From an uncultured virus (IMG/VR IMGVR_UViG_3300009161_000002) (taxonomy: Duplodnaviria > Heunggongvirae > Uroviricota > Caudoviricetes), in IMG/VR virus record IMGVR_UViG_3300009161_000002: DNA of 64,000 nt. The stretch is one strand, 5' to 3'. Positions 1 to 21,307 of the stretch are shown here, piece by piece (the stretch's first letter is position 1; each line of letters starts with the position of its first letter). A model generated the notes under the pieces. It was not told where the DNA came from and made no database searches. It saw nothing but the letters and a program-made list of their open reading frames with translations. The translations under genes were made by a program, and so were the position numbers.

Positions 1-3000
1 TCCTGTTCCAGTTACTCCTTGGAATCCTAAGATACCTTGAATACCCTGAATGCCTCTTAACCCTTGAACACCTTGTATCCCTTGTATTCCTTGAGCACCA
101 ATACCTCCAGTACTTCCTATAGAACCTTGAGTTCCGGTAGCCCCTTGTGTTCCAATTCCACCTGTAGTACCTTGATTTCCAGTAGCTCCAATTGTACCTT
201 GAGTTCCAATACTTCCTTGAGAACCTTGAGAACCAACGGCACCCTGAGAACCTATAGCTCCTATAGCACCTTGCAATCCTGTAAGTCCCTGTAATCCAGT
301 ACTACCTTGTGCACCTGTTCCACCTGCTGAACCTATAGCACCTTGAGAACCAATAAAACCTTGTGTCCCTTGAGATCCTGTAGAACCTGTTGTACCTATA
401 GTACCTTGACTTCCCTGAGCACCGGTTGCACCAGTTGTTCCTGTTGTACCCTGTAAACCAGTGGTACCTGTAGCACCCTGACTACCAGTAGTACCTGTAG
501 TTCCGGTAGTACCCTGAGTACCAACTGCACCCTGGCTACCTGTAGATCCAACAGAACCTTGAGATCCCGTAGTTCCTGTAGTTCCCTGAGTACCAGTTCC
601 TCCAGTGTTACCAATAAAACCTTGGATTCCTTGTGTTCCTATAACTCCTTGCTGTCCTTGAATACCCTGTATTCCTTGTAAACCCTGAGCACCTTGAGTA
701 CCAGTTGTTCCTACTGTTCCTTGAGCTCCTTGTGAACCATTAGATCCAATAGTGCCTTGTAAACCTTGAGTACCTTGAGATCCAATTTGTCCTTGAGAAC
801 CTATTGTGCCCTGTGTACCCTGTATGCCCTGAATTCCTTGTGTTCCTTGTGTTCCAGTAGCACCTTGACTACCAGTAAATCCTTGAATTCCTTGAGTTCC
901 AAAAGTTCCCTGGCTTCCTGTAGTACCTTGTGTACCAAATGTACCTTGACTTCCAGTTAAACCTTGTAAGCCAACACTTCCCTGCAAACCTGTAAAACCT
1001 TGCACACCTTGTGATCCCGTAGTCCCAGTTGTACCAGTAGTTCCTTGTTGTCCAATAGCACCTTGAGTTCCTGTTGTTCCAGTAGTTCCTTGGAAACCAA
1101 ATATACCTTGGCTCCCTTGACTTCCTACTGCACCTTGACTACCTTGTGATCCAACTGCACCTTGAGCTCCTGTATTTCCTAATAGACCTTGTGTTCCCTG
1201 AGAACCTTGAGCACCACTAGTTCCTGTAGATCCAGTAAATCCTTGAATACCTTGACTACCTTGACTACCTACAGCTCCTTGAGAACCTGTATTTCCAACA
1301 GTTCCTTGAAAACCTGTAATACCTTGCATACCTTGAATACCCTGTATACCTTGTAAACCCTGAGTTCCTTGAGAACCAGATGTTCCCGTAGTACCTGTTG
1401 TACCTTGGGATCCTGTGGTTCCTACACTTCCTTGTGTACCAGTTGCACCCTGAGAACCTGTTGTTCCAACTGAACCTTGAAGTCCTGTTAAACCCTGTAA
1501 ACCAGTAGTTCCTTGTATGCCTTGTATGCCCTGAGTACCTTGTGTTCCAATTAATCCTTGAGTTCCTGTATTACCTTGTATTCCTTGACTACCAACAAAA
1601 CCCTGTATACCTTGTGTGCCTGTATTTCCTTGTGCACCAATATTACCAGTAAAACCTTGAATACCTTGAATTCCTAATAGACCTTGTATTCCTTGTATAC
1701 CCTGGAGACCAATAAGACCTTGAAGACCAGTTGTACCTGTAGTTCCCTGAGATCCTACTGTACCCTGTGCACCAGTAGATCCTAAAGTACCTTGTGCCCC
1801 TTGACTTCCTGTACTACCTGTATTACCAATAATTCCCTGAATTCCTTGTGTGCCTTGACTTCCATTTATACCAGCAGTACCTTGAGAACCAATTGTTCCT
1901 TGTGTTCCAGTTGTTCCTTGTGTACCAATATTACCTTGTGATCCAGTTGCTCCTTGTGATCCCGTAGCCCCAGTTGTACCTATAGTTCCTTGAGAACCAA
2001 TAGCACCTTGAGTTCCAGTATTACCAATAGATCCCTGAGAACCTGTAGTACCAGTAGTACCTTGGAATCCAGTAGTGCCCTGTGCACCAGTTCCTCCAGT
2101 AGATCCAATTGCACCTTGACTTCCAATTGCTCCTTGAGAACCTGTATTTCCTGTTGTACCTGTGGTTCCTTGAAGTCCTTGAGTACCCTGAACACCTTGA
2201 AGTCCTTGAGTTCCTTGAGATCCAGTAGTTCCCTGAAGACCTTGGATGCCTTGGGAACCAGTAGTACCTTGTAAACCCTGAAGACCTTGCAGACCCTGAA
2301 GACCTTGTGAACCAGTAGTGCCTTGAGATCCAGTTGTGCCCTGAAGACCTTGTAGACCCTGAGTGCCTTGAGTCCCTGTGGTTCCTTGAATACCCTGTAT
2401 TCCCTGAGTCCCAGTAGTGCCTTGAGACCCTGTGGTTCCCTGAAGCCCTTGAGTACCTTGTAATCCTTGAGTTCCTTGAGTTCCTTGATTTCCTTGGATA
2501 CCTTGAACACCCTGAACACCCTGGAGTCCCTGGAGACCTTGAGTTCCTGTTCCTCCAACAGCACCCTGAGTACCTATTGCACCCTGAGACCCTGTAGTAC
2601 CTATTGTACCTTGTGATCCAGTTGCTCCTTGACTACCTATTCCTCCAGTTGTTCCTGTAGTACCTTGTGAACCAATACTACCTTGAGTACCAGTTGTTCC
2701 AGTAAAACCCTGACTTCCTGTTGTTCCTGTTGCTCCTTGGGATCCAATAAATCCTTGGCTACCAACTGTTCCCTGAGTCCCTGTTGTTCCAGTAGATCCA
2801 ATAGCTCCCTGTGAACCAATTGTTCCTTGGGTTCCGGTTGTTCCTGTGCTACCTTGAGTTCCTGTTGTACCAGTAGAACCTTGTGATCCATTTATACCAG
2901 CAGAACCTTGACTACCAGTAGTTCCCTGTGAGCCATTTAAACCTTGAGTACCATTAGCACCCTGAGTACCAACAGAACCTTGAGAACCAACGGCACCCTG

Positions 3001-5808
3001 AGTTCCAGTAGTGCCCTGGCTACCTACTGTACCTTGGATTCCTTGTAGACCTAAAATACCTTGAGTACCTTGTGTACCAGTTGTTCCCTGACTGCCAGTT
3101 GTTCCTTGTGTACCTACAGTTCCTTGAACACCTTGTGTTCCTTGAGTACCTTGTGAGCCTTGAATACCTTGAATTCCCTGTAATCCTTGTAGACCAGTTA
3201 ATCCTTGTATACCCAAAAGTCCTTGAGTACCTTGTATACCAAGTAAACCTTGAATACCTTGTAAACCTGTTAAACCTTGCGCACCTGTAATACCTTGTAA
3301 GCCTGTGATACCTTGTAAGCCAAGAATACCCTGAATTCCCTGTACACCTTGGATGCCTTGACTGCCGGTCTGACCTTGAGATCCGGTTGTACCTTGAGTA
3401 CCATTAATACCTGCTGTACCTTGTGTGCCTATGACACCTTGAAGACCAACAGCTCCTTGAACACCTAATAATCCTTGTGTCCCTTGGATTCCTTGTGTCC
3501 CTTGAGCTCCAGTATTTCCAAGTAAACCTTGAATACCCTGAATTCCTTGCAATCCTTGTAAACCTGTAAGCCCTTGAGTTCCTGTTAAACCTTGAGTTCC
3601 AGTAACACCTTGTAATCCAATTGTTCCCTGTACACCTTGAAGTCCTTGACTTCCTACGGCACCAGTTGTACCCTGAAATCCAACAGCCCCTTGACTACCA
3701 GTTGATCCAGTAGTTCCTTGGCTACCAGTAGCACCAACAGTTCCTTGGGAACCAACTGTACCTTGTGCTCCTGTATCACCTATTATTCCTTGGAAACCAG
3801 TTTCTCCTTGAATACCAGTTTCACCTTGAATACCAGCACCACCAATTATACCTTGATTACCTTGAACACCTTGTAAACCAGTTGTTCCTTGTCTGCCTTG
3901 AATTCCTTGACTACCAGTTTGACCTTGAACTCCTAATGTTCCCTGTGTACCTTGACTACCAGTGGTTCCCTGTGAACCATTTATTCCACTTGTTCCTTGT
4001 AAACCCAAAGTCCCTTGAGTACCTTGAGCTCCTGTTAAACCTGTAGTACCTTGAAGTCCTGTAGTTCCTTGCGCACCTGTGCTACCAGCAGTACCTTGAC
4101 TACCCGTATTACCAAAAATACCCTGAGTACCTTGTAATCCTGTTAATCCTTGAGTTCCAAAGGTACCTTGTGCACCTGTCTGACCTTGACTTCCTGTATT
4201 ACCCTGAGAACCAAAAGTACCTTGGCTACCGGTAATTCCTTGTGTACCCTGAATACCTTGTAATCCCTGAAGTCCTACTGTTCCTTGAGTACCAATTGCA
4301 CCTTGCAGTCCAGTTGTACCTTGCAGTCCAGTAGCTCCTGTAGCACCTTGAGTTCCAGTTGTACCTTGAGACCCAGTAGTTCCAGTAGAACCCTGACTTC
4401 CAGTATTTCCTAATATACCTTGAATACCTTGAGTACCTTGTGCACCTACTAATCCATTAGTACCTTGAACACCTTGTATCCCTTGTGTTCCAGTTATTCC
4501 TTGTAGACCTAAAATACCTTGTGTTCCTTGAGTCCCTTGCAATCCTATACTACCTTGAGAACCTGTATTTCCAGTGGTACCTTGGGTACCTTGAGAACCA
4601 ACAACACCAAGTATACCTTGTAATCCTTGTATTCCTTGGCTGCCAGTAGTACCTTGATTTCCTAATTCCCCCTGAGTTCCTTGACTACCTTGTAGTCCAG
4701 TTAATCCTGTAGTTCCTTGTGTTCCTACAGCTCCTTGACTACCTGTACTTCCGGTTGTACCTTGACTACCAGTTGTACCTAAAATTCCTTGTGTCCCTTG
4801 TGTACCCTGAGTACCTACTTGTCCTTGTACTCCGTTAGTTCCTTGAGTTCCTGTTAATCCTTGTAAGCCTGTAGTACCTTGAGTACCTATAGAACCTTGT
4901 GTACCAGTTGTACCAAGTATACCTTGAGTTCCTTGTATACCTTGCACTCCTTGAATCCCTAATGTACCTTGAGTACCTTGGGAACCGGTTAAACCCTGTG
5001 ATCCTGTAGCTCCGACAGCACCTTGTGTTCCTGTAACTCCCTGAGAACCAGTACTACCTGTGGTACCTTGGCTTCCTGTATTTCCTGTAAAACCTTGTAT
5101 ACCAACAGCTCCTTGAGAGCCAGTGCTTCCTGTTGTTCCTTGAGAGCCAGTATTACCTAAAGTACCCTGAGTTCCTTGTATGCCTTGTGTTCCTTGTACT
5201 CCTACTGAACCTTGTGAACCTACAGTACCTTGATTTCCAGTTGTACCTTGATTACCAAGTATACCCTGTGTACCCTGTGTACCTTGATTTCCAGTTGTTC
5301 CAGTCTGTCCTTGTGTTCCGGTTATACCTTGTGAACCAGTAGAGCCTGTTGTTCCTTGGGAACCCGTATTTCCATCTAATCCTTGAGCACCTGTAGTTCC
5401 TTGAACCCCTGTAGAACCAGTTGTTCCTTGACTACCATTTGCTCCAATACTACCTTGAGTTCCAGTTTCACCTTGAATACCAACTCCACCAGTAAATCCT
5501 TGTAAACCTTGAAAACCTTGAATACCTTGATATCCTTGGATACCTATTCCAACAAATCCTTGTATTCCTGTAGGTCCTTGAAAACCTTGAATACCTGGAT
5601 ATCCTTGAACACCTATTCCAATAAAACCTTGAATTCCTTGTGGACCATCAAAACCTTGGATTCCCTGGATGCCTTGTATTCCTATAGGTCCTTGAATACC
5701 TACATTACCTTGTATACCAGTGGTTCCTTGTACACCTTGTCCTGCAAATGCACCTGAAATACCTTGAATACCTTGGACACCTTGAATACCTTGGATACCT
5801 ACATTTCC
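1..5808 (-). repeat. Degenerate 9-nt tandem repeat encoding Gly-X-Y (GTQ, GSQ, GIQ, GLQ, GTT, GAQ)
   Basis: Plus strand shows recurrent nCC (Gly codons) every 9 nt and CCTTG/CCCTG (Gln-Gly) throughout. Confidence 0.95.
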
Positions 5809-6084
5809 TTCATTACAAAGCCAATTAACTATTTCATTTAAACCTTGTGCTACCGTAGTATCTTGTGCAATTATGGTAGCACCTTGACATACAATATCAG
5901 CACCTGTATATACAATACAATCTGCATCAAATGATTCAGCACACTTCTCCTCATCACCACAAGCTTCTGTTGTGCATGGAGGGGGTGTAGTTAATCCAGA
6001 TGTACATACGTTACACTTTCCACAGTTATTGCATCCTGATGTAGGAAATACTCCCTCTATAGAACTAGATTTTTTAGGTATCAT
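1..6084 (-). CDS. Giant collagen-like fibre protein (3'-partial, >=2028 aa): Cys-rich 92-aa N-terminus, then ~645 Gly-X-Y triplets
   Basis: Manual translation from ATG 6084 gives MIPKKSSSIEGVFPTSGCNNCGKCNVC...WLCNEGNVGIQGIQGVQG. The 9-nt periodicity runs to base 1 in the same frame (...GFQGVTGTG). It is absent from the ORF track, presumably because no stop lies in the window. Confidence 0.93.
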   Translation of the reverse strand, partial: MIPKKSSSIEGVFPTSGCNNCGKCNVCTSGLTTPPPCTTEACGDEEKCAESFDADCIVYTGADIVCQGATIIAQDTTVAQGLNEIVNWLCNEGNVGIQGIQGVQGIQGISGAFAGQGVQGTTGIQGNVGIQGPIGIQGIQGIQGFDGPQGIQGFIGIGVQGYPGIQGFQGPTGIQGFVGIGIQGYQGIQGFQGLQGFTGGVGIQGETGTQGSIGANGSQGTTGSTGVQGTTGAQGLDGNTGSQGTTGSTGSQGITGTQGQTGTTGNQGTQGTQGILGNQGTTGNQGTVGSQGSVGVQGTQGIQGTQGTLGNTGSQGTTGSTGSQGAVGIQGFTGNTGSQGTTGSTGSQGVTGTQGAVGATGSQGLTGSQGTQGTLGIQGVQGIQGTQGILGTTGTQGSIGTQGTTGLQGLTGTQGTNGVQGQVGTQGTQGTQGILGTTGSQGTTGSTGSQGAVGTQGTTGLTGLQGSQGTQGELGNQGTTGSQGIQGLQGILGVVGSQGTQGTTGNTGSQGSIGLQGTQGTQGILGLQGITGTQGIQGVQGTNGLVGAQGTQGIQGILGNTGSQGSTGTTGSQGTTGTQGATGATGLQGTTGLQGAIGTQGTVGLQGLQGIQGTQGITGSQGTFGSQGNTGSQGQTGAQGTFGTQGLTGLQGTQGIFGNTGSQGTAGSTGAQGTTGLQGTTGLTGAQGTQGTLGLQGTSGINGSQGTTGSQGTQGTLGVQGQTGSQGIQGRQGTTGLQGVQGNQGIIGGAGIQGETGIQGETGFQGIIGDTGAQGTVGSQGTVGATGSQGTTGSTGSQGAVGFQGTTGAVGSQGLQGVQGTIGLQGVTGTQGLTGTQGLTGLQGLQGIQGIQGLLGNTGAQGTQGIQGTQGLLGVQGAVGLQGVIGTQGTAGINGTQGTTGSQGQTGSQGIQGVQGIQGILGLQGITGLQGITGAQGLTGLQGIQGLLGIQGTQGLLGIQGLTGLQGLQGIQGIQGSQGTQGTQGVQGTVGTQGTTGSQGTTGTQGTQGILGLQGIQGTVGSQGTTGTQGAVGSQGSVGTQGANGTQGLNGSQGTTGSQGSAGINGSQGSTGTTGTQGSTGTTGTQGTIGSQGAIGSTGTTGTQGTVGSQGFIGSQGATGTTGSQGFTGTTGTQGSIGSQGTTGTTGGIGSQGATGSQGTIGTTGSQGAIGTQGAVGGTGTQGLQGLQGVQGVQGIQGNQGTQGTQGLQGTQGLQGTTGSQGTTGTQGIQGIQGTTGTQGTQGLQGLQGTTGSQGTTGSQGLQGLQGLQGLQGTTGSQGIQGLQGTTGSQGTQGLQGVQGTQGLQGTTGTTGNTGSQGAIGSQGAIGSTGGTGAQGTTGFQGTTGTTGSQGSIGNTGTQGAIGSQGTIGTTGATGSQGATGSQGNIGTQGTTGTQGTIGSQGTAGINGSQGTQGIQGIIGNTGSTGSQGAQGTLGSTGAQGTVGSQGTTGTTGLQGLIGLQGIQGIQGLLGIQGIQGFTGNIGAQGNTGTQGIQGFVGSQGIQGNTGTQGLIGTQGTQGIQGIQGTTGLQGLTGLQGSVGTTGSQGATGTQGSVGTTGSQGTTGTTGTSGSQGTQGLQGIQGIQGMQGITGFQGTVGNTGSQGAVGSQGSQGIQGFTGSTGTSGAQGSQGTQGLLGNTGAQGAVGSQGSQGAVGSQGSQGIFGFQGTTGTTGTQGAIGQQGTTGTTGTTGSQGVQGFTGLQGSVGLQGLTGSQGTFGTQGTTGSQGTFGTQGIQGFTGSQGATGTQGTQGIQGIQGTQGTIGSQGQIGSQGTQGLQGTIGSNGSQGAQGTVGTTGTQGAQGLQGIQGIQGQQGVIGTQGIQGFIGNTGGTGTQGTTGTTGSQGSVGSTGSQGAVGTQGTTGTTGTTGSQGATGTTGLQGTTGTTGATGAQGSQGTIGTTGSTGSQGTQGFIGSQGAIGSAGGTGAQGSTGLQGLTGLQGAIGAIGSQGAVGSQGSQGSIGTQGTIGATGNQGTTGGIGTQGATGTQGSIGSTGGIGAQGIQGIQGVQGLRGIQGIQGILGFQGVTGTG

Positions 6085-13476: not shown

Positions 13477-13508
13477 TTTATAATGTATAAACTTAAAACC
13501 TAGAAATT

Positions 13509-13976
13509 ATGGGAAGTGTATTAGATTATATAGAATGTCCAAATTGTAAAAGTGAAGCAAACAGTGATTACTATTACAAAACAGGTGAAGAATATATTAA
13601 TTGTGGTAACTGTGGTTATCATCGTTCAGTAACTATTGTTAATAGAGATAAGAAATTATCTGAATTAACAGATGATGATTGGAAAGTTGAAGAGCTTAAA
13701 AACCCTTATGGTGCTTATAGATTAAAAGTATACCATAGTCCTATTAGACAATGTGGTTCATTAGAAAATGAAGAACAGTATAATAACTTTAAAACAGCTA
13801 ATGAAGTTGATGTGGAGATAGAATATTGTTCTGTATCAAGACTAATTGATGGTGAAATTGTTACTGAAGTTATTATTGATAATGGACCTGAAGTAGATTC
13901 AGCTGGATATACAGCAGAAGATAGAAAAAATGAGAATGACCTGAATGCATTAGAAAATTCAGGTACAGAGTATTAA
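13509..13976 (+). CDS. Zn-ribbon protein
   Basis: CPNC...CGNC at the N-terminus. Confidence 0.8.
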   Translation: MGSVLDYIECPNCKSEANSDYYYKTGEEYINCGNCGYHRSVTIVNRDKKLSELTDDDWKVEELKNPYGAYRLKVYHSPIRQCGSLENEEQYNNFKTANEVDVEIEYCSVSRLIDGEIVTEVIIDNGPEVDSAGYTAEDRKNENDLNALENSGTEY

Positions 13977-14039
13977 AAAACATAGCAGGTGAAAGTCCTG
14001 CATTTAAATCAATTTAAAAATAAACTTAAAACAGAACTT

Positions 14040-14948
14040 ATGAGAAATTTAGCAGCAAAAGGTTTGAGTATGTCTCAAGCACAAAGTATTTCTAATCTGT
14101 GCAATCAAAATGCACAGGAGATACAAAGAGAAATTGAATCTTACAACAACTGTAGTAAGATGATTAGCATTAGTGGTCAATCTTACTTAATGCAAGAAGG
14201 ATTAGTTATACCAGGAGATATCTTAGATAAACTTAAGACTAAAGGTGATTTACATGCTACTCAGGCATTCCTTATGGAAGCTATTAAGAGTAAGGAGTCT
14301 GAATTAGGAAGAATCCGGAATATGGTTCCTGATTTATCTCATTTAATAGAACCTGAAAGAATATATGCTCCTGATTATGAAATACAATATAATGTAGAAG
14401 AATCATGGGGTTGGTCACAGCTTACAGATTCTGAATACTCACAGTATTTACAAGAAGAAGCATTAGCATCTCATCTTGGTCAGTTTATCCATAAACATGG
14501 TAAGTTAACTGAATTAAGAAAAGAACTTCCAAATATAGCTACTATTGAATGGTTTGAAGTTGAAGATGGTAAAAAGACTCCGGTTAAAGTTACCAAGCAT
14601 CATCACCCTAGTTCATTAATGGAACTACATGAGGAAGTTGCAGAACTTCATAGAAAACATGAGCAAAAAGTAAACTACTTCAAAGCTAAGGTTAAGAACT
14701 TAGTAAGTGATGAGAATGCACGTATTCAGAAAGAGAATGCAAACAAAGCAGCTGAATTCTTGAAGCTTGAGAAAGAACTCAACCAGAATTATCAGTTAGC
14801 AATGGATGCATACAATGGTGAAGTTCTTAAACAAACCATGGACTTTAATAGTGGACGTGAGTTACTTATTAAAGCAACAGCAGCATTAAGAATTAATGTT
14901 GATCCTCGTTTTCAGCATGTAATAGATTTATTTATTACTGCTGAGTAG
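14040..14948 (+). CDS. Long coiled-coil protein (302 aa from MRNLAAKGLSMSQAQ)
   Basis: Helical E/K/L/Q-rich sequence; ATG 14040 follows a TAAACTTAAAA leader. Confidence 0.85.
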   Translation: MRNLAAKGLSMSQAQSISNLCNQNAQEIQREIESYNNCSKMISISGQSYLMQEGLVIPGDILDKLKTKGDLHATQAFLMEAIKSKESELGRIRNMVPDLSHLIEPERIYAPDYEIQYNVEESWGWSQLTDSEYSQYLQEEALASHLGQFIHKHGKLTELRKELPNIATIEWFEVEDGKKTPVKVTKHHHPSSLMELHEEVAELHRKHEQKVNYFKAKVKNLVSDENARIQKENANKAAEFLKLEKELNQNYQLAMDAYNGEVLKQTMDFNSGRELLIKATAALRINVDPRFQHVIDLFITAE

Positions 14949-14954
14949 TATTAA

Positions 14955-15260
14955 TATTAGGTGAGTAAGAGATAGGCACAAGCTGATTCTCTTACTCTTC
15001 ATACCTAGTGACAGGAATTCATATATACTTCGTGGCATTGACCACATCTAAAAAATGTAATGTTATACATAAACTTAAAAAACCGCTTCTCTTCAACTTT
15101 ACTGAGATAGAACTCATCATCAGACAGGTTACTCCATCTAGCGGAGATAACTGGCTGATACAATTGAGACTATATTTTTGTATTTGCCTTTGTGGAAGAG
15201 AAGGTCTTTGAATTTGTATTTGCATTTGATTTTAGCTATATATTCCTGTCACTTGGTGAC
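14955..15260 (+). ncRNA. ~300-nt structured RNA with phased TTTGNN hexamers
   Basis: Stems 14963-72/14988-97, 15007-18/15242-53 and 15086-94/15195-203; seven TTTGNN units in 6-nt phase at 15177-15230. Confidence 0.65.
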
Positions 15261-15276
15261 TATAAAAACTTGTATT

Positions 15277-15600
15277 ATGAAAAAAATGACATTTAATAAA
15301 GAAGATAAAAAATGGTATATCTTCCTACCTCAGTGGGAAGGTGATAAATCTGATTTAGAGATGGTTTCCGGTGCTGATAGAATGCTTGATTATTTATCAA
15401 ATAACACAGACACTGTTACTGTTGATGTTTCAGAAGAACCAATAGAAAATGCAGTCAAACTTAAAAAGCTACATCATTTATATGGTGGTGCTGATTATAA
15501 GGTTGAGAATTGTCCAGATGTAGACAGAGCATGGTTATGTAAAGTAACCAAGTTTGTTTATGGAGGATACATGCCTAATCTTTTATACATCAAAGCATGA
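15277..15600 (+). CDS. DUF6717-like phage protein
   Basis: WYIFLPQWEGDKSDLEMVSGADRMLD...WLCKVTKFVYGGYMP. Confidence 0.65.
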   Translation: MKKMTFNKEDKKWYIFLPQWEGDKSDLEMVSGADRMLDYLSNNTDTVTVDVSEEPIENAVKLKKLHHLYGGADYKVENCPDVDRAWLCKVTKFVYGGYMPNLLYIKA

Positions 15601-15673
15601 AAGAATTAATCATTACGGCTTTACTAATGGTGTTAGTATGGTCACAGAATTACTTAAATCAAAAAAAATAATT

Positions 15674-15838
15674 ATGAAATATATGAATTTTTTATTTACA
15701 GGAATTGCAATAATCACTATGACTTGTTGTTTAGTCTTAATGTGGACTGAACCACAGCATGTTATGTTTGCAACATACGTGTTTTTATTAGCAGGTGTAT
15801 TGGGTACAGTATCAATACTTAATATTCGTACAAAATAG
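15674..15838 (+). CDS. Small 2-TM membrane protein
   Basis: MKYMNFLFTGIAII...; hydrophobic. Confidence 0.6.
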   Translation: MKYMNFLFTGIAIITMTCCLVLMWTEPQHVMFATYVFLLAGVLGTVSILNIRTK

Positions 15839-15857
15839 TTTACTTATATAATATAAA

Positions 15858-16118
15858 ATGGAAAAGATTATTACAGAATTAAAAGAAAAAAGAGACTATC
15901 ATATTGAAGAACTAGAAGATCTTCATAGATATGAACCAGCTGAAGAGTATTACAAACTCAGAAGAAATGAACTTGAATATCAAATAGCATGTTTAGAAAT
16001 GGCTATTGATGAGTTAATGACTCAAAGTTCTTTGAAGAAAAATCAAACTAAAAGATTAATGGCTACTGTATTACTAGTAGCCATTGTATCATCAATTATT
16101 TATTTACTTTTATTTTAA
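15858..16118 (+). CDS. Hypothetical protein with a C-terminal TM anchor
   Basis: Helical N-terminus plus hydrophobic tail. Confidence 0.7.
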   Translation: MEKIITELKEKRDYHIEELEDLHRYEPAEEYYKLRRNELEYQIACLEMAIDELMTQSSLKKNQTKRLMATVLLVAIVSSIIYLLLF

Positions 16119-16126
16119 AGTATTTA

Positions 16127-16200
16127 GATTCCATAGCTCAACTGGATAGAGCACTACCCTTCTAAGGTATAGGTTATAGGTTCGACTCCTATTGGAATCA
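16127..16200 (+). tRNA. trnR: tRNA-Arg (anticodon TCT), CCA not encoded
   Basis: Acceptor GATTCCA/TGGAATC, D-arm GCTC/GAGC, anticodon loop CT-TCT-AA, T-arm ATAGG-TTCGACT-CCTAT. Confidence 0.95.
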
Positions 16201-16223
16201 CTATTTATTGTTAAACTTAAAAT

Positions 16224-16550
16224 ATGATTATGAAATTATTTAAAAAGTTATTTAAAAAGAAAACGAATGGTCAAAGTAACCATAAACTATTAATTATTAA
16301 TGATAATGCTAATCAAATAGATGAAGTATTTGGTATTAGTGAGCAACGATCAGATGAGTTATTAGACATATGCATTCATGCTTATCATAAAAACCATCAA
16401 CTACATGAATGTCTTGTAGAAGTTGTTGATCAATGTAAACATACAAATGAAGTTGTATTTGCCACTATGATTATGCATAGAGTTATTGATAAATATAATT
16501 CTAAGCATGTATTGTCTGGTTTTCTTAAAAACATGTTTGGTAATGGATAA
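16224..16550 (+). CDS. Hypothetical protein
   Basis: 108-aa ORF. Confidence 0.7.
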   Translation: MIMKLFKKLFKKKTNGQSNHKLLIINDNANQIDEVFGISEQRSDELLDICIHAYHKNHQLHECLVEVVDQCKHTNEVVFATMIMHRVIDKYNSKHVLSGFLKNMFGNG

Positions 16551-21052: not shown

Positions 21053-21307
21053 ATGGAAAACACAAAAACACATAAATTAGTTTTGTATAATGATTCTGTC
21101 AATAACTATGGTTATATCATGGCATGCTTAATTAGATTCTGTAAACATGATCCAATACAAGCTGAACAATGTGCTATAATTGCTAACAATGTTGGTCAAT
21201 GTTCTGTAAAATCTGGTGATTTTTTAGAAATGTTAGAAATAAAATCTACTTTTGAAGAATTACAGATTAAATCAGAAATAGAAGTTTATGAAAGTCATAT
21301 GCATTGA
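21053..21307 (+). CDS. clpS: ClpS-like protease adaptor
   Basis: KLVLYNDSVN...IMACLIRFCKHDPIQAEQCAII...GQCSVKSG, the Bacteroidota-type ClpS pattern. Confidence 0.8.
   Translation: MENTKTHKLVLYNDSVNNYGYIMACLIRFCKHDPIQAEQCAIIANNVGQCSVKSGDFLEMLEIKSTFEELQIKSEIEVYESHMH

Follow-up and report, generated by a model that had tools for sequence, protein, structure and literature searches.

We describe a conserved structured RNA, and the protein-coding gene that constantly precedes it, within a stretch of 64,000 nucleotides (nt) from an uncultured virus of the Caudoviricetes (IMG/VR record IMGVR_UViG_3300009161_000002; the whole stretch is referred to here as ‘the window’). The RNA lies in the 328-base spacer between gene A, the product of which is without known family or fold, and the next gene downstream, gene B. 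Our favoured explanation, which we hold tentatively, is that gene A and the RNA make up one two-part phage module; a ribonucleoprotein in which protein A is the likeliest binder of two tracts of evenly spaced hexamers within the RNA.

A conserved structured RNA behind gene A

Against shuffled sequences, the ~330-nt spacer folds unusually well, at z = -6.24 for the + strand and z = -5.91 for the minus strand; in neither case was any of 100 shuffles as good. A protein search with A in IMG/VR returned 21 loci, and the element is present in all 14 distinct sequences that extend far enough downstream, in two of which A is only 47–50% identical. A search pattern made from two invariant blocks of the RNA gave 70 loci, from which 52 distinct elements, the window's own included, were aligned; covariation and column counts given here refer to 51 distinct sequences. 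RNAalifold proposed 43 pairs for the 52-element alignment, 35 of them with compensatory changes, and we extended this structure to 56 pairs, arranged as helices P0–P5. Of 2835 cells in the extended structure 91.0% hold standard pairs, as against 38.2–47.0% when the partners are slid by 1–3 columns; two-sided changes occur in 45 of the 56 pairs (22–26 when slid) and the covariation score is 0.458 (0.093–0.160 when slid), with none of 500 shuffles matching any observed covariation measure. G-U cells number 200 and A-C cells 63, an excess from which it follows that the RNA is read from the + strand, in the same direction as the flanking genes. The interval 14958–15262 is therefore a conserved structured RNA on the + strand (Table 1). 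An initial annotation, made from the sequence of the window alone, had proposed just such an RNA, listing a hairpin, a long-range stem, an inner stem and several smaller hairpins after the stop at 14948; all of these are found where it placed them, the spacer containing every feature that it named, and the stems that it suggested seeking in the 3′ flanks of homologues do covary.

Table 1. Features of the gene A–gene B interval, in window coordinates
Feature	Position	Strand	Description
Gene A	14040-14948	+	302 residues, stop TAG 14946-14948; no known family; constant upstream partner of the RNA
Whole structured RNA, ~305 nt	14958-15262	+	Closed by terminal helix P0
P0 terminal helix	14958-60 with 15260-62	+	Closes the entire molecule
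P1 hairpin	14963-72 with 14988-97	+	10 bp (inverted repeat, 100%), apical helix, conserved loop
P2 long closing helix	15002-05 with 15255-58 and 15007-18 with 15242-53 (strands 15002-15018, 15242-15258)	+	Covariation
Variable A-rich region	15019-15079	+	Small hairpin 15032-35 with 15042-45; alignment columns 126-257
P3 inner helix, 9 bp	15086-94 with 15195-203	+	CTTCTCTTC with GAAGAGAAG
P4 hairpin	15101-15116	+	TGAG 15103-06 with CTCA 15113-16, within near-invariant block ACUGAGAUAGAACUCA
P5 hairpin	15119-59	+	ATCAG...CTGAT, internal loops, variable tip
Hexamer tract 1	15175-15192	+	NNUUUG x3 (x4 in most relatives), last part is heptamer GCCUUUG 15186-92
Hexamer tract 2	15204-15236	+	GUCUUUG, then AAUUUG UAUUUG CAUUUG AUUUUA GC
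Gene B	15277-15600	+	Full-length DUF6717 / phrog_24162 protein, next gene downstream

Moving inwards from the two ends of the molecule, the G14960-C15260 pair of P0 is invariant (51/51), and the pair adjacent to it alternates between AU (36) and UA (11). P1 shows two-sided changes in all 10 stem pairs and carries an apical helix (14975-77 with 14982-84), the apical pair of which is A-U in 19 sequences, G-U in 16 and A-C in 15. P2 is built on a core in which AGTGACAGGAAT (15007-18) pairs with ATTCCTGTCACT (15242-53), the inverted repeat reaching 21 nt at 86% (15003-23 with 15237-57); all 16 of its pairs show two-sided changes, with 88.3% of cells paired. A pairing of the invariant GGU at 14960-62 with 15003-05 was also considered and rejected, as it shows no two-sided changes and the same bases covary with 15255-58. 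Past the 5′ strand of P2 comes the A-rich region, which differs in length and sequence between relatives, and then an invariant CGC (15084-86) leading into the 5′ strand of P3; a helix with two-sided changes in 8 of 9 pairs and 93.7% of cells paired.

The block that contains P4 owes its invariance in the pattern-derived set to the search pattern itself; it is also invariant in the 14 distinct sequences obtained via protein A alone. Four divergent relatives (L157-L159 and L161) have a different small hairpin in place of P4, and in these the segment matching 15165-70 changes too; since the two change together, this segment may be able to pair with the 3′ strand of P4. P5 shows two-sided changes in 6 of 11 pairs, with 91.8% of cells paired. 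The two hexamer tracts are U-rich and single-stranded and bracket the 3′ strand of P3, which has a G-Y-C-U-U-U-G heptamer on either flank. A pseudoknot between GAGAC and GUCUU is possible on paper; we dropped it, the variants GAGCC and GAGUC occurring without compensation.

The window itself has open reading frames (ORFs) of 67 and 68 codons across this interval (15008-15211 on the + strand and 15019-15225 on the minus strand) and the arms of its helices are inverted repeats, both of which would suit a reading without RNA, in which the interval is a small gene or some DNA element (for instance an origin, an array of promoters or a miniature transposon whose inverted ends measure 12 bp). Among the 52 relatives, however, there is no conserved reading frame: the longest open stretch, of 32 to 89 codons, does not stay in one frame, the elements are 297 to 338 nt long and differ in length by amounts not divisible by three, and the 68-codon minus-strand ORF clusters in only 4 of 52 loci. 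Neither of the two frames that the initial annotation had set against its own proposal is thus conserved, which favours an RNA, and to judge from these comparisons the element is not translated. The keeping of G-U over A-C argues, furthermore, against pairing at the level of DNA. TTTG recalls the promoter boxes of Bacteroidota, but TAnnTTTG is not enriched (26 seen, 22 expected) and sigma-70-like sites are fewer than in shuffles, and the promoter-array reading was accordingly discarded. Taken together, we consider the coding and DNA-element readings largely refuted and their probability slight in the extreme.

Nor does the RNA belong to a named family, in line with the initial annotation, which knew of none with this layout: Rfam 15 (including ROOL, GOLLD, HEARO, raiA, tmRNA, RNase P and the group I intron) has no match to the element at the gathering threshold, and within 14900-15320 there is no family at E ≤ 10 either, the best score being that of a small nucleolar RNA model (E 0.34; 23 bits against a gathering score of 43). 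Literature on ornate and structured phage RNAs, including crAss-like and microbiome candidates, yielded no description of such an RNA. A catalogue of structured RNAs from viruses contains, in those parts of it that were available, models of 29–151 nt only, and pieces of the window RNA could be among them (PMC10690425).

Coupling of the RNA to gene A

All 70 of the loci found with the RNA pattern have a homologue of A (44–100% identity) just upstream, three of them beginning inside it. An alignment-based search with A gave 222 relatives, and the best 80 of these were examined for the RNA by nhmmer: 78 have it (E 2e-15 to 6e-80), two end too early and none is without, such that homologues of A keep the element, as the initial annotation had anticipated. 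In most loci the RNA starts 8–28 nt past the stop of A, and in three there is extra DNA in between (309 nt in L024 and L070, 755 nt in L025); the junction tolerates insertions, both parts staying intact. The insertion in L025 (oriented 1750-2340) consists of two ORFs, of 102 and 91 residues, and in L024 and L070 the inserted DNA was also put at about 150 nt. When genes around the element are clustered, that of A is present in 51 of 52 loci, the 52nd beginning inside A, with the next commonest cluster present in 20; the immediate neighbours of the pair are mostly singletons and its surroundings are not conserved. Because A and the RNA are strictly coupled while their other neighbours vary, the two evidently constitute, on the grounds of gene neighbourhood, a two-part module placed in a variable region. 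The cluster of gene B (cluster 9) is found at just 8 of the 52 distinct loci; gene B is an inconstant neighbour and probably lies outside the module.

The module often keeps company with transfer RNA (tRNA) genes. Of the 52 loci related to that of the window (clade 1, as distinct from a second clade described below), 31 have at least one tRNA gene within 2.5 kb, and in a more distant subclade (L026, L031, L052, L056, L060, L066) A begins 30–90 nt past the final tRNA of an array. In L027 the RNA element is immediately followed by a tRNA-like gene called by ARAGORN (2666-2754), with a four-base anticodon loop reading (aaag).

This setting, the highly conserved unpaired blocks and the multi-helix core would all suit an RNA-only machine, be it a ribozyme or a self-assembling ornate RNA in the manner of ROOL or GOLLD, whose only tie to A would be a common transcript. 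Like those two, the window RNA is an orphan, intricately folded phage RNA, and ROOL and GOLLD also lie near tRNAs; here the array often ends just before A. We regard this as a shared habit and not as proof of membership; the window RNA has about half the size of ROOL and GOLLD (roughly 600–800 nt), matches no Rfam family even at E ≤ 10 and has an obligatory protein-gene partner. No catalytic motif was recognised in it, and that A is never found without the RNA, among the best 80 of 222 relatives, would be left unexplained, making an RNA acting alone decidedly improbable. ROOL, GOLLD and OLE are reported to form RNA-only homo-oligomers (PMC12286853).

The initial annotation had also raised a toxin–antitoxin-like or anti-defence pair, and here it has not been upheld. 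The locus does combine a protein gene with an adjacent structured, non-coding RNA, in a variable early phage region, and the two could form a defined complex, as in the type III toxin–antitoxin system ToxIN; the RNA, however, stands downstream of the gene and not upstream, an order opposite to that of ToxIN, and the locus has no tandem RNA repeats of the 36-nt ToxIN kind, its only tandem-like repeat being a two-copy 16-nt repeat spaced 36 nt. A has no match in PADLOC and none to a ToxN-like or defence family; a known endoribonuclease toxin family was likewise not found for it by PADLOC, Pfam, NCBIfam or fold, searches that a new nuclease could escape. In 185,579 prokaryotic genomes, usually another home of such systems, the RNA pattern was not found, and we think a pair of this type very unlikely. 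Amongst GenBank phages, blastn of 13500-16300 matched the tRNA that lies there and nothing else, and tblastn of A gave no match.

The stretch is present in DNA runs from freshwater and sediment, as well as in six RNA libraries, and four lake RNA runs, from three studies, were examined as contigs. In X16 a contig of 875 nt (depth 49.5) bridges A and the element (14414-15266), ending there with 23 unrelated letters; in X15 a contig spans 14843-15235; and in X17 a 264-nt contig (14971-15235) has a depth of 130.3, with three contigs of gene A at 3.4–4. These contigs hint at co-transcription of the RNA with A and at its accumulation; saying this, contig depth cannot rank the parts of a transcript, RNA libraries may contain DNA, and a conserved element may gather the reads of several strains. 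All four lake RNA-library contig sets differ from the window at two places in the variable region of the RNA, having T>A at 15039 and lacking one base at 15070; the sequences in the libraries are those of a slightly different strain.

A cis-acting element in the 3′ untranslated region of the A message, guarding it against 3′ exonucleases or feeding back on the synthesis of A with no separate RNA involved, would fit the short distance from the stop of A in most loci, the library contigs that span both parts, and the terminator-like hairpin with a U tract that trails the element in clade 2. Amongst known systems, the gene A–RNA pair also has a likeness in the autoregulatory RNA of T4 gene 32, where a structured nucleation element likewise adjoins a repetitive single-stranded tract, rich in U and A, within the message of the protein itself. 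The gene 32 element, a pseudoknot plus unstructured repeat tract, sits in the 5′ leader and controls the start of translation, whereas that of the window is 3′ of its gene and far larger, and A is not an SSB (binder of single-stranded DNA) of the oligonucleotide/oligosaccharide-binding (OB) fold by any search. Against a purely cis-acting role, around 305 nt, six helices and near-invariant single-stranded blocks far exceed the needs of end protection, the element stays intact where genes intervene between it and A (L025), and the element contig in X17 is hinted to run at ~30x the depth of those of gene A; we consider a purely cis-acting role unlikely.

Hexamer tracts, protein A and a candidate ribonucleoprotein

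In the window, TTTG starts at 15177, 15183, 15189, 15207, 15213, 15219 and 15225, with TTTAGC following in phase at 15231. The seven TTTGNN hexamers and in-phase TTTAGC of the initial annotation are thus present as it described them, and their six-base periodicity recurs in the 51 relatives: in tract 1, G is found at alignment columns 375, 381, 387 and 393 in 45, 49, 51 and 50 of 51 sequences, and in tract 2 at columns 412, 418, 424 and 430 in 51, 51, 47 and 42, with column 436 being A or G. Three near-invariant U precede each phased G and two free positions follow it. Judging from the alignment, the periodicity is a conserved property of the RNA. The exact phase claimed across the intervening stem strand is, by contrast, a feature of the window and of 31 of 51 relatives, the other 20 having one extra base between the tracts, ahead of the P3 strand (column 396).

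The most conserved parts of the tracts are the heptamers G(C/U)CUUUG (15186-92; column 388 is C in 30 and U in 20) and GUCUUUG (15204-10), which abut the 3′ strand of P3. GUCUUUG is invariant in the aligned 51, a set found with a pattern that contains it; it is near-invariant in 30 distinct RNAs without the exact pattern that were obtained by protein search, and in those 30 GGUCUUUG varies only to GGCCUUUG, AGUCUUUG or GGUCUUUA.

Distant homologues of A, found on viral contigs of 194–294 kb and gut metagenome contigs of 12–294 kb, define a second clade. The clade-2 protein (298 residues) aligns with A over 255 columns (hhalign 97.1%, E 5e-11; 24% identity by BLASTP) and is followed by a non-coding stretch of ~280 nt with z = -5.71. 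The clade-2 RNA has no sequence likeness to that of the window (nhmmer at E ≤ 10, all filters off), but its parts come in the same order: first, directly past the stop, a hairpin, next a closing helix of ~17 bp, then an inner helix of 9 bp, and hexamers; GUUCUA GUUCAU GAUCUU before the 3′ strand of the inner helix, and GUUCUU GUUAUA GUUCUG GAUAUU after it. G recurs every six bases in a single phase across the inner-helix strand, with a consensus of GUUCUN. Were the hexamers repeated protein sites that co-evolve with their protein, such a return of the layout under a changed hexamer would be expected. None of three clade-2 loci has a tRNA gene within 2.5 kb. Amongst searches for distant homologues, one with family member P0150 alone found none in viral contigs, and an alignment-based one found a single truncated locus in viral contigs and none in metagenome contigs.

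Protein A itself has no match in Pfam, PHROG, NCBIfam, PADLOC or the sequences of the PDB (nothing below E 0.5 by PDB profile), and no usable one in the ESM Atlas; Pfam on 20 distant members of the family gives sub-threshold coiled-coil noise only, and the single match in BFVD is an uncharacterized homologue. A confident AlphaFold model (predicted local distance difference test, pLDDT, 84.9; predicted template modelling score, pTM, 0.75) comprises two helix / beta-hairpin / long-helix units. Foldseek against the PDB returns background only for this model (best E 0.028), and the best Z in VIA-align wide, 7.6, is within noise for helical models. A is thus without known family or fold. The ‘coiled-coil’ label first given to it broadly holds, the model having long helices (190-246 and 255-281), though it leaves out the two beta-hairpins. 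Profile search places A in a large family; its representative clusters (defined at 50% identity) number 795 at E ≤ 1e-3, falling to 436 at 1e-10 and to 140 at 1e-30, and almost all members have ~300 residues.

Two copies of A are modelled as a symmetric dimer, with a score of 0.58 against 0.00 for the best of three controls. Its runs scored 0.58, 0.59 and 0.06, with contact agreement of at least 8% and a partner pLDDT of at least 66; on calibration, 20 of 30 solved homodimers attained the mark, as did 1 of 23 single chains, figures that are approximate as A was run with an alignment of our own making. The predicted interface takes in many invariant residues (140-149 and 180-188). On the strength of the modelling A would self-associate as a dimer, in keeping with part of what had been proposed at the outset, an oligomer bound to the hexamers; the model offers no TRAP-like ring.

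From these parts we assemble the following picture. The RNA would be transcribed with gene A and persist as a compact folded molecule, in which P0 and P2 enclose P3, the P4 and P5 hairpins and the two single-stranded tracts. The tracts, with four and four to five NNUUUG hexamers flanking the 3′ strand of P3, may offer a series of ‘landing sites’ to copies of a single-stranded-RNA-binding protein; dimeric protein A would be the likeliest candidate, protein and RNA then forming a ribonucleoprotein particle. We infer the binding of A to the tracts from this arrangement. The particle's job may lie in RNA or translation biology, as hinted by its frequent location beside phage tRNA genes.

Several observations weigh against this picture. 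The model of A is a dimer, neither ring nor filament, and one of its three runs scored low; A is acidic (isoelectric point, pI, 5.3–6.3 across 39 relatives; among 120 representatives of the family the median is 6.3, with 5 above 7.5), and this mild acidity counts against a classical nucleic-acid binder; Pfam, Foldseek and VIA-align find no known RNA-binding domain or fold in it. To these must be added the slip of phase between the tracts, the other DNA found between A and the RNA in L024, L025 and L070, and the cautions given above as to the library contigs. Covariation in clade 2 is, moreover, thin (10 of 97 pairs compensatory, in 14 near-identical sequences), and because of this low diversity the clade-2 fold is less well proven.

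The tracts might instead serve as a sponge or recruiter for a single-strand-binding protein of the host, for example one with a cold-shock domain (CSD), with A a co-expressed helper or unrelated to the binding. The acidity of A itself would fit, and the six-base spacing would suit a small domain with a footprint of 6–7 bases. The most conserved single-stranded blocks are, furthermore, the two G-Y-C-U-U-U-G heptamers. For Bacillus subtilis CspB on single-stranded DNA, a seven-base site of consensus 5′-GTCTTTG/T-3′, with C preferred at position 3, has been reported (PMC1904285); GUCUUUG at 15204-10 equals it, with G(C/U)CUUUG standing at 15186-92. Saying this, a seven-base match picked after the fact is weak, the clade-2 hexamer differs (GUUCUN), no CSD or Hfq gene is present among the ORFs of the window, and the strict coupling to A is left unexplained; this alternative is, in our estimation, not likely.

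Amongst the known systems closest to A and its RNA are TRAP and HutP. TRAP, a beta-sandwich 11-mer, binds 9–11 (G/U)AG triplets with short spacers (2–3 nt) in the Bacillus trp leader, which switches a terminator, and HutP binds UAG repeats; as there, evenly spaced short single-stranded repeats lie beside competing or defined helices in the window RNA, suggesting one site per subunit of a multi-copy protein. In the window these are hexamers, NNUUUG (GUUCUN in clade 2) in sets of 4 + 4–5, in place of the 9–11 triplets of TRAP; the protein is modelled as a helical dimer with two beta-hairpins and has no Pfam match, in contrast to the 11–12-mer ring of TrpBP; and the RNA stands behind its gene rather than in a leader, with no terminator-like site at the element. 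Like RNAs of the CsrB/RsmZ and 6S types, which sequester a protein, the RNA could, as a stable non-coding molecule, use its many repeated sites to take up a protein or to deliver one. Unlike CsrB/RsmZ, it has no GGA motifs and carries its sites in two linear tracts of a closed fold and not in hairpin loops; unlike all three, it is phage-encoded, tied to one gene and without an Rfam match.

What we have before us looks like an undescribed gene–RNA module. A bolder version, possible but doubtful to our minds, is that of a widespread, hitherto undescribed class of phage ribonucleoproteins: a dimer of new fold, always encoded with its own ~300-nt RNA, of which several copies would be lined up by the phased tracts, hexamer and protein co-evolving (lake phages having NNUUUG, and gut phage contigs of 58–294 kb having GUUCUN) and the whole, placed at the ends of tRNA arrays, acting on host or phage RNA metabolism or translation, whether directly or by capturing host proteins of the cold-shock type. 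New structured RNA families of ~300 nt with strong covariation are rare, and an obligatory partner protein of no known fold is rarer still; with 795 clusters in the A family, from lake phages to phage contigs of the human gut, an unrecognised RNA–protein machine may be common in phages. The six-base phasing provides a concrete, testable handle on how protein and RNA come together; as to the target, two testable ideas arise, one from the neighbouring tRNA genes and one from the match to a site of cold-shock proteins; and the gene A–RNA pair is a compact candidate for cryo-electron microscopy or crystallography of a natural RNA–protein particle.

Genomic setting

The phage genome is AT-rich, at ~30% G+C. 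Between 10.8 and 43 kb the window holds many short genes on the + strand, amongst them a replication module (helicases, primase, a Sak4-like protein, exonuclease and DNA polymerase), past which come giant ORFs of 1979, 3322 and at least 1553 residues on the minus strand. The DNA polymerase is only ~35% identical to those of assorted phages, and for this reason a crAss-like label was not adopted. In the short spacer before gene A there is a 5-bp G+C-rich hairpin (GCAGG...CCTGC, 13985-14001), itself listed as a terminator-like site on the minus strand.

The sole Rfam match at the gathering threshold in the 64 kb is a tRNA (16127-16200; gene at 16127-16201) with anticodon CUA; of the amber-suppressor type, and labelled tRNA-Pyl by ARAGORN. 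Close relatives have tRNA-Arg(UCU) at the matching position (e.g. L030 2498-2572, L044, L046, L059, L080), and the nearest blastn matches of the window's own tRNA are phage tRNA-Arg genes, such that it looks like an arginine tRNA with an altered anticodon. Other relatives have tRNAs with anticodons UUA (L028, L060) and UCA (L066). Gene A of the window stops with TAG, as do 24 of 46 relatives; the remaining 22 use TAA, and none uses TGA. Given an amber suppressor, read-through of the TAG of the window would append one residue before a TAA.

Further afield, an ORF of more than 2028 residues on the minus strand (1-6084) consists mostly of collagen triple-helix repeats (Pfam E 2.7e-272), in a region of 44–46% G+C as against ~30% elsewhere, and 21053-21304 on the + strand encodes an 84-residue ClpS-like adaptor (Pfam PF02617, E 4.6e-10).

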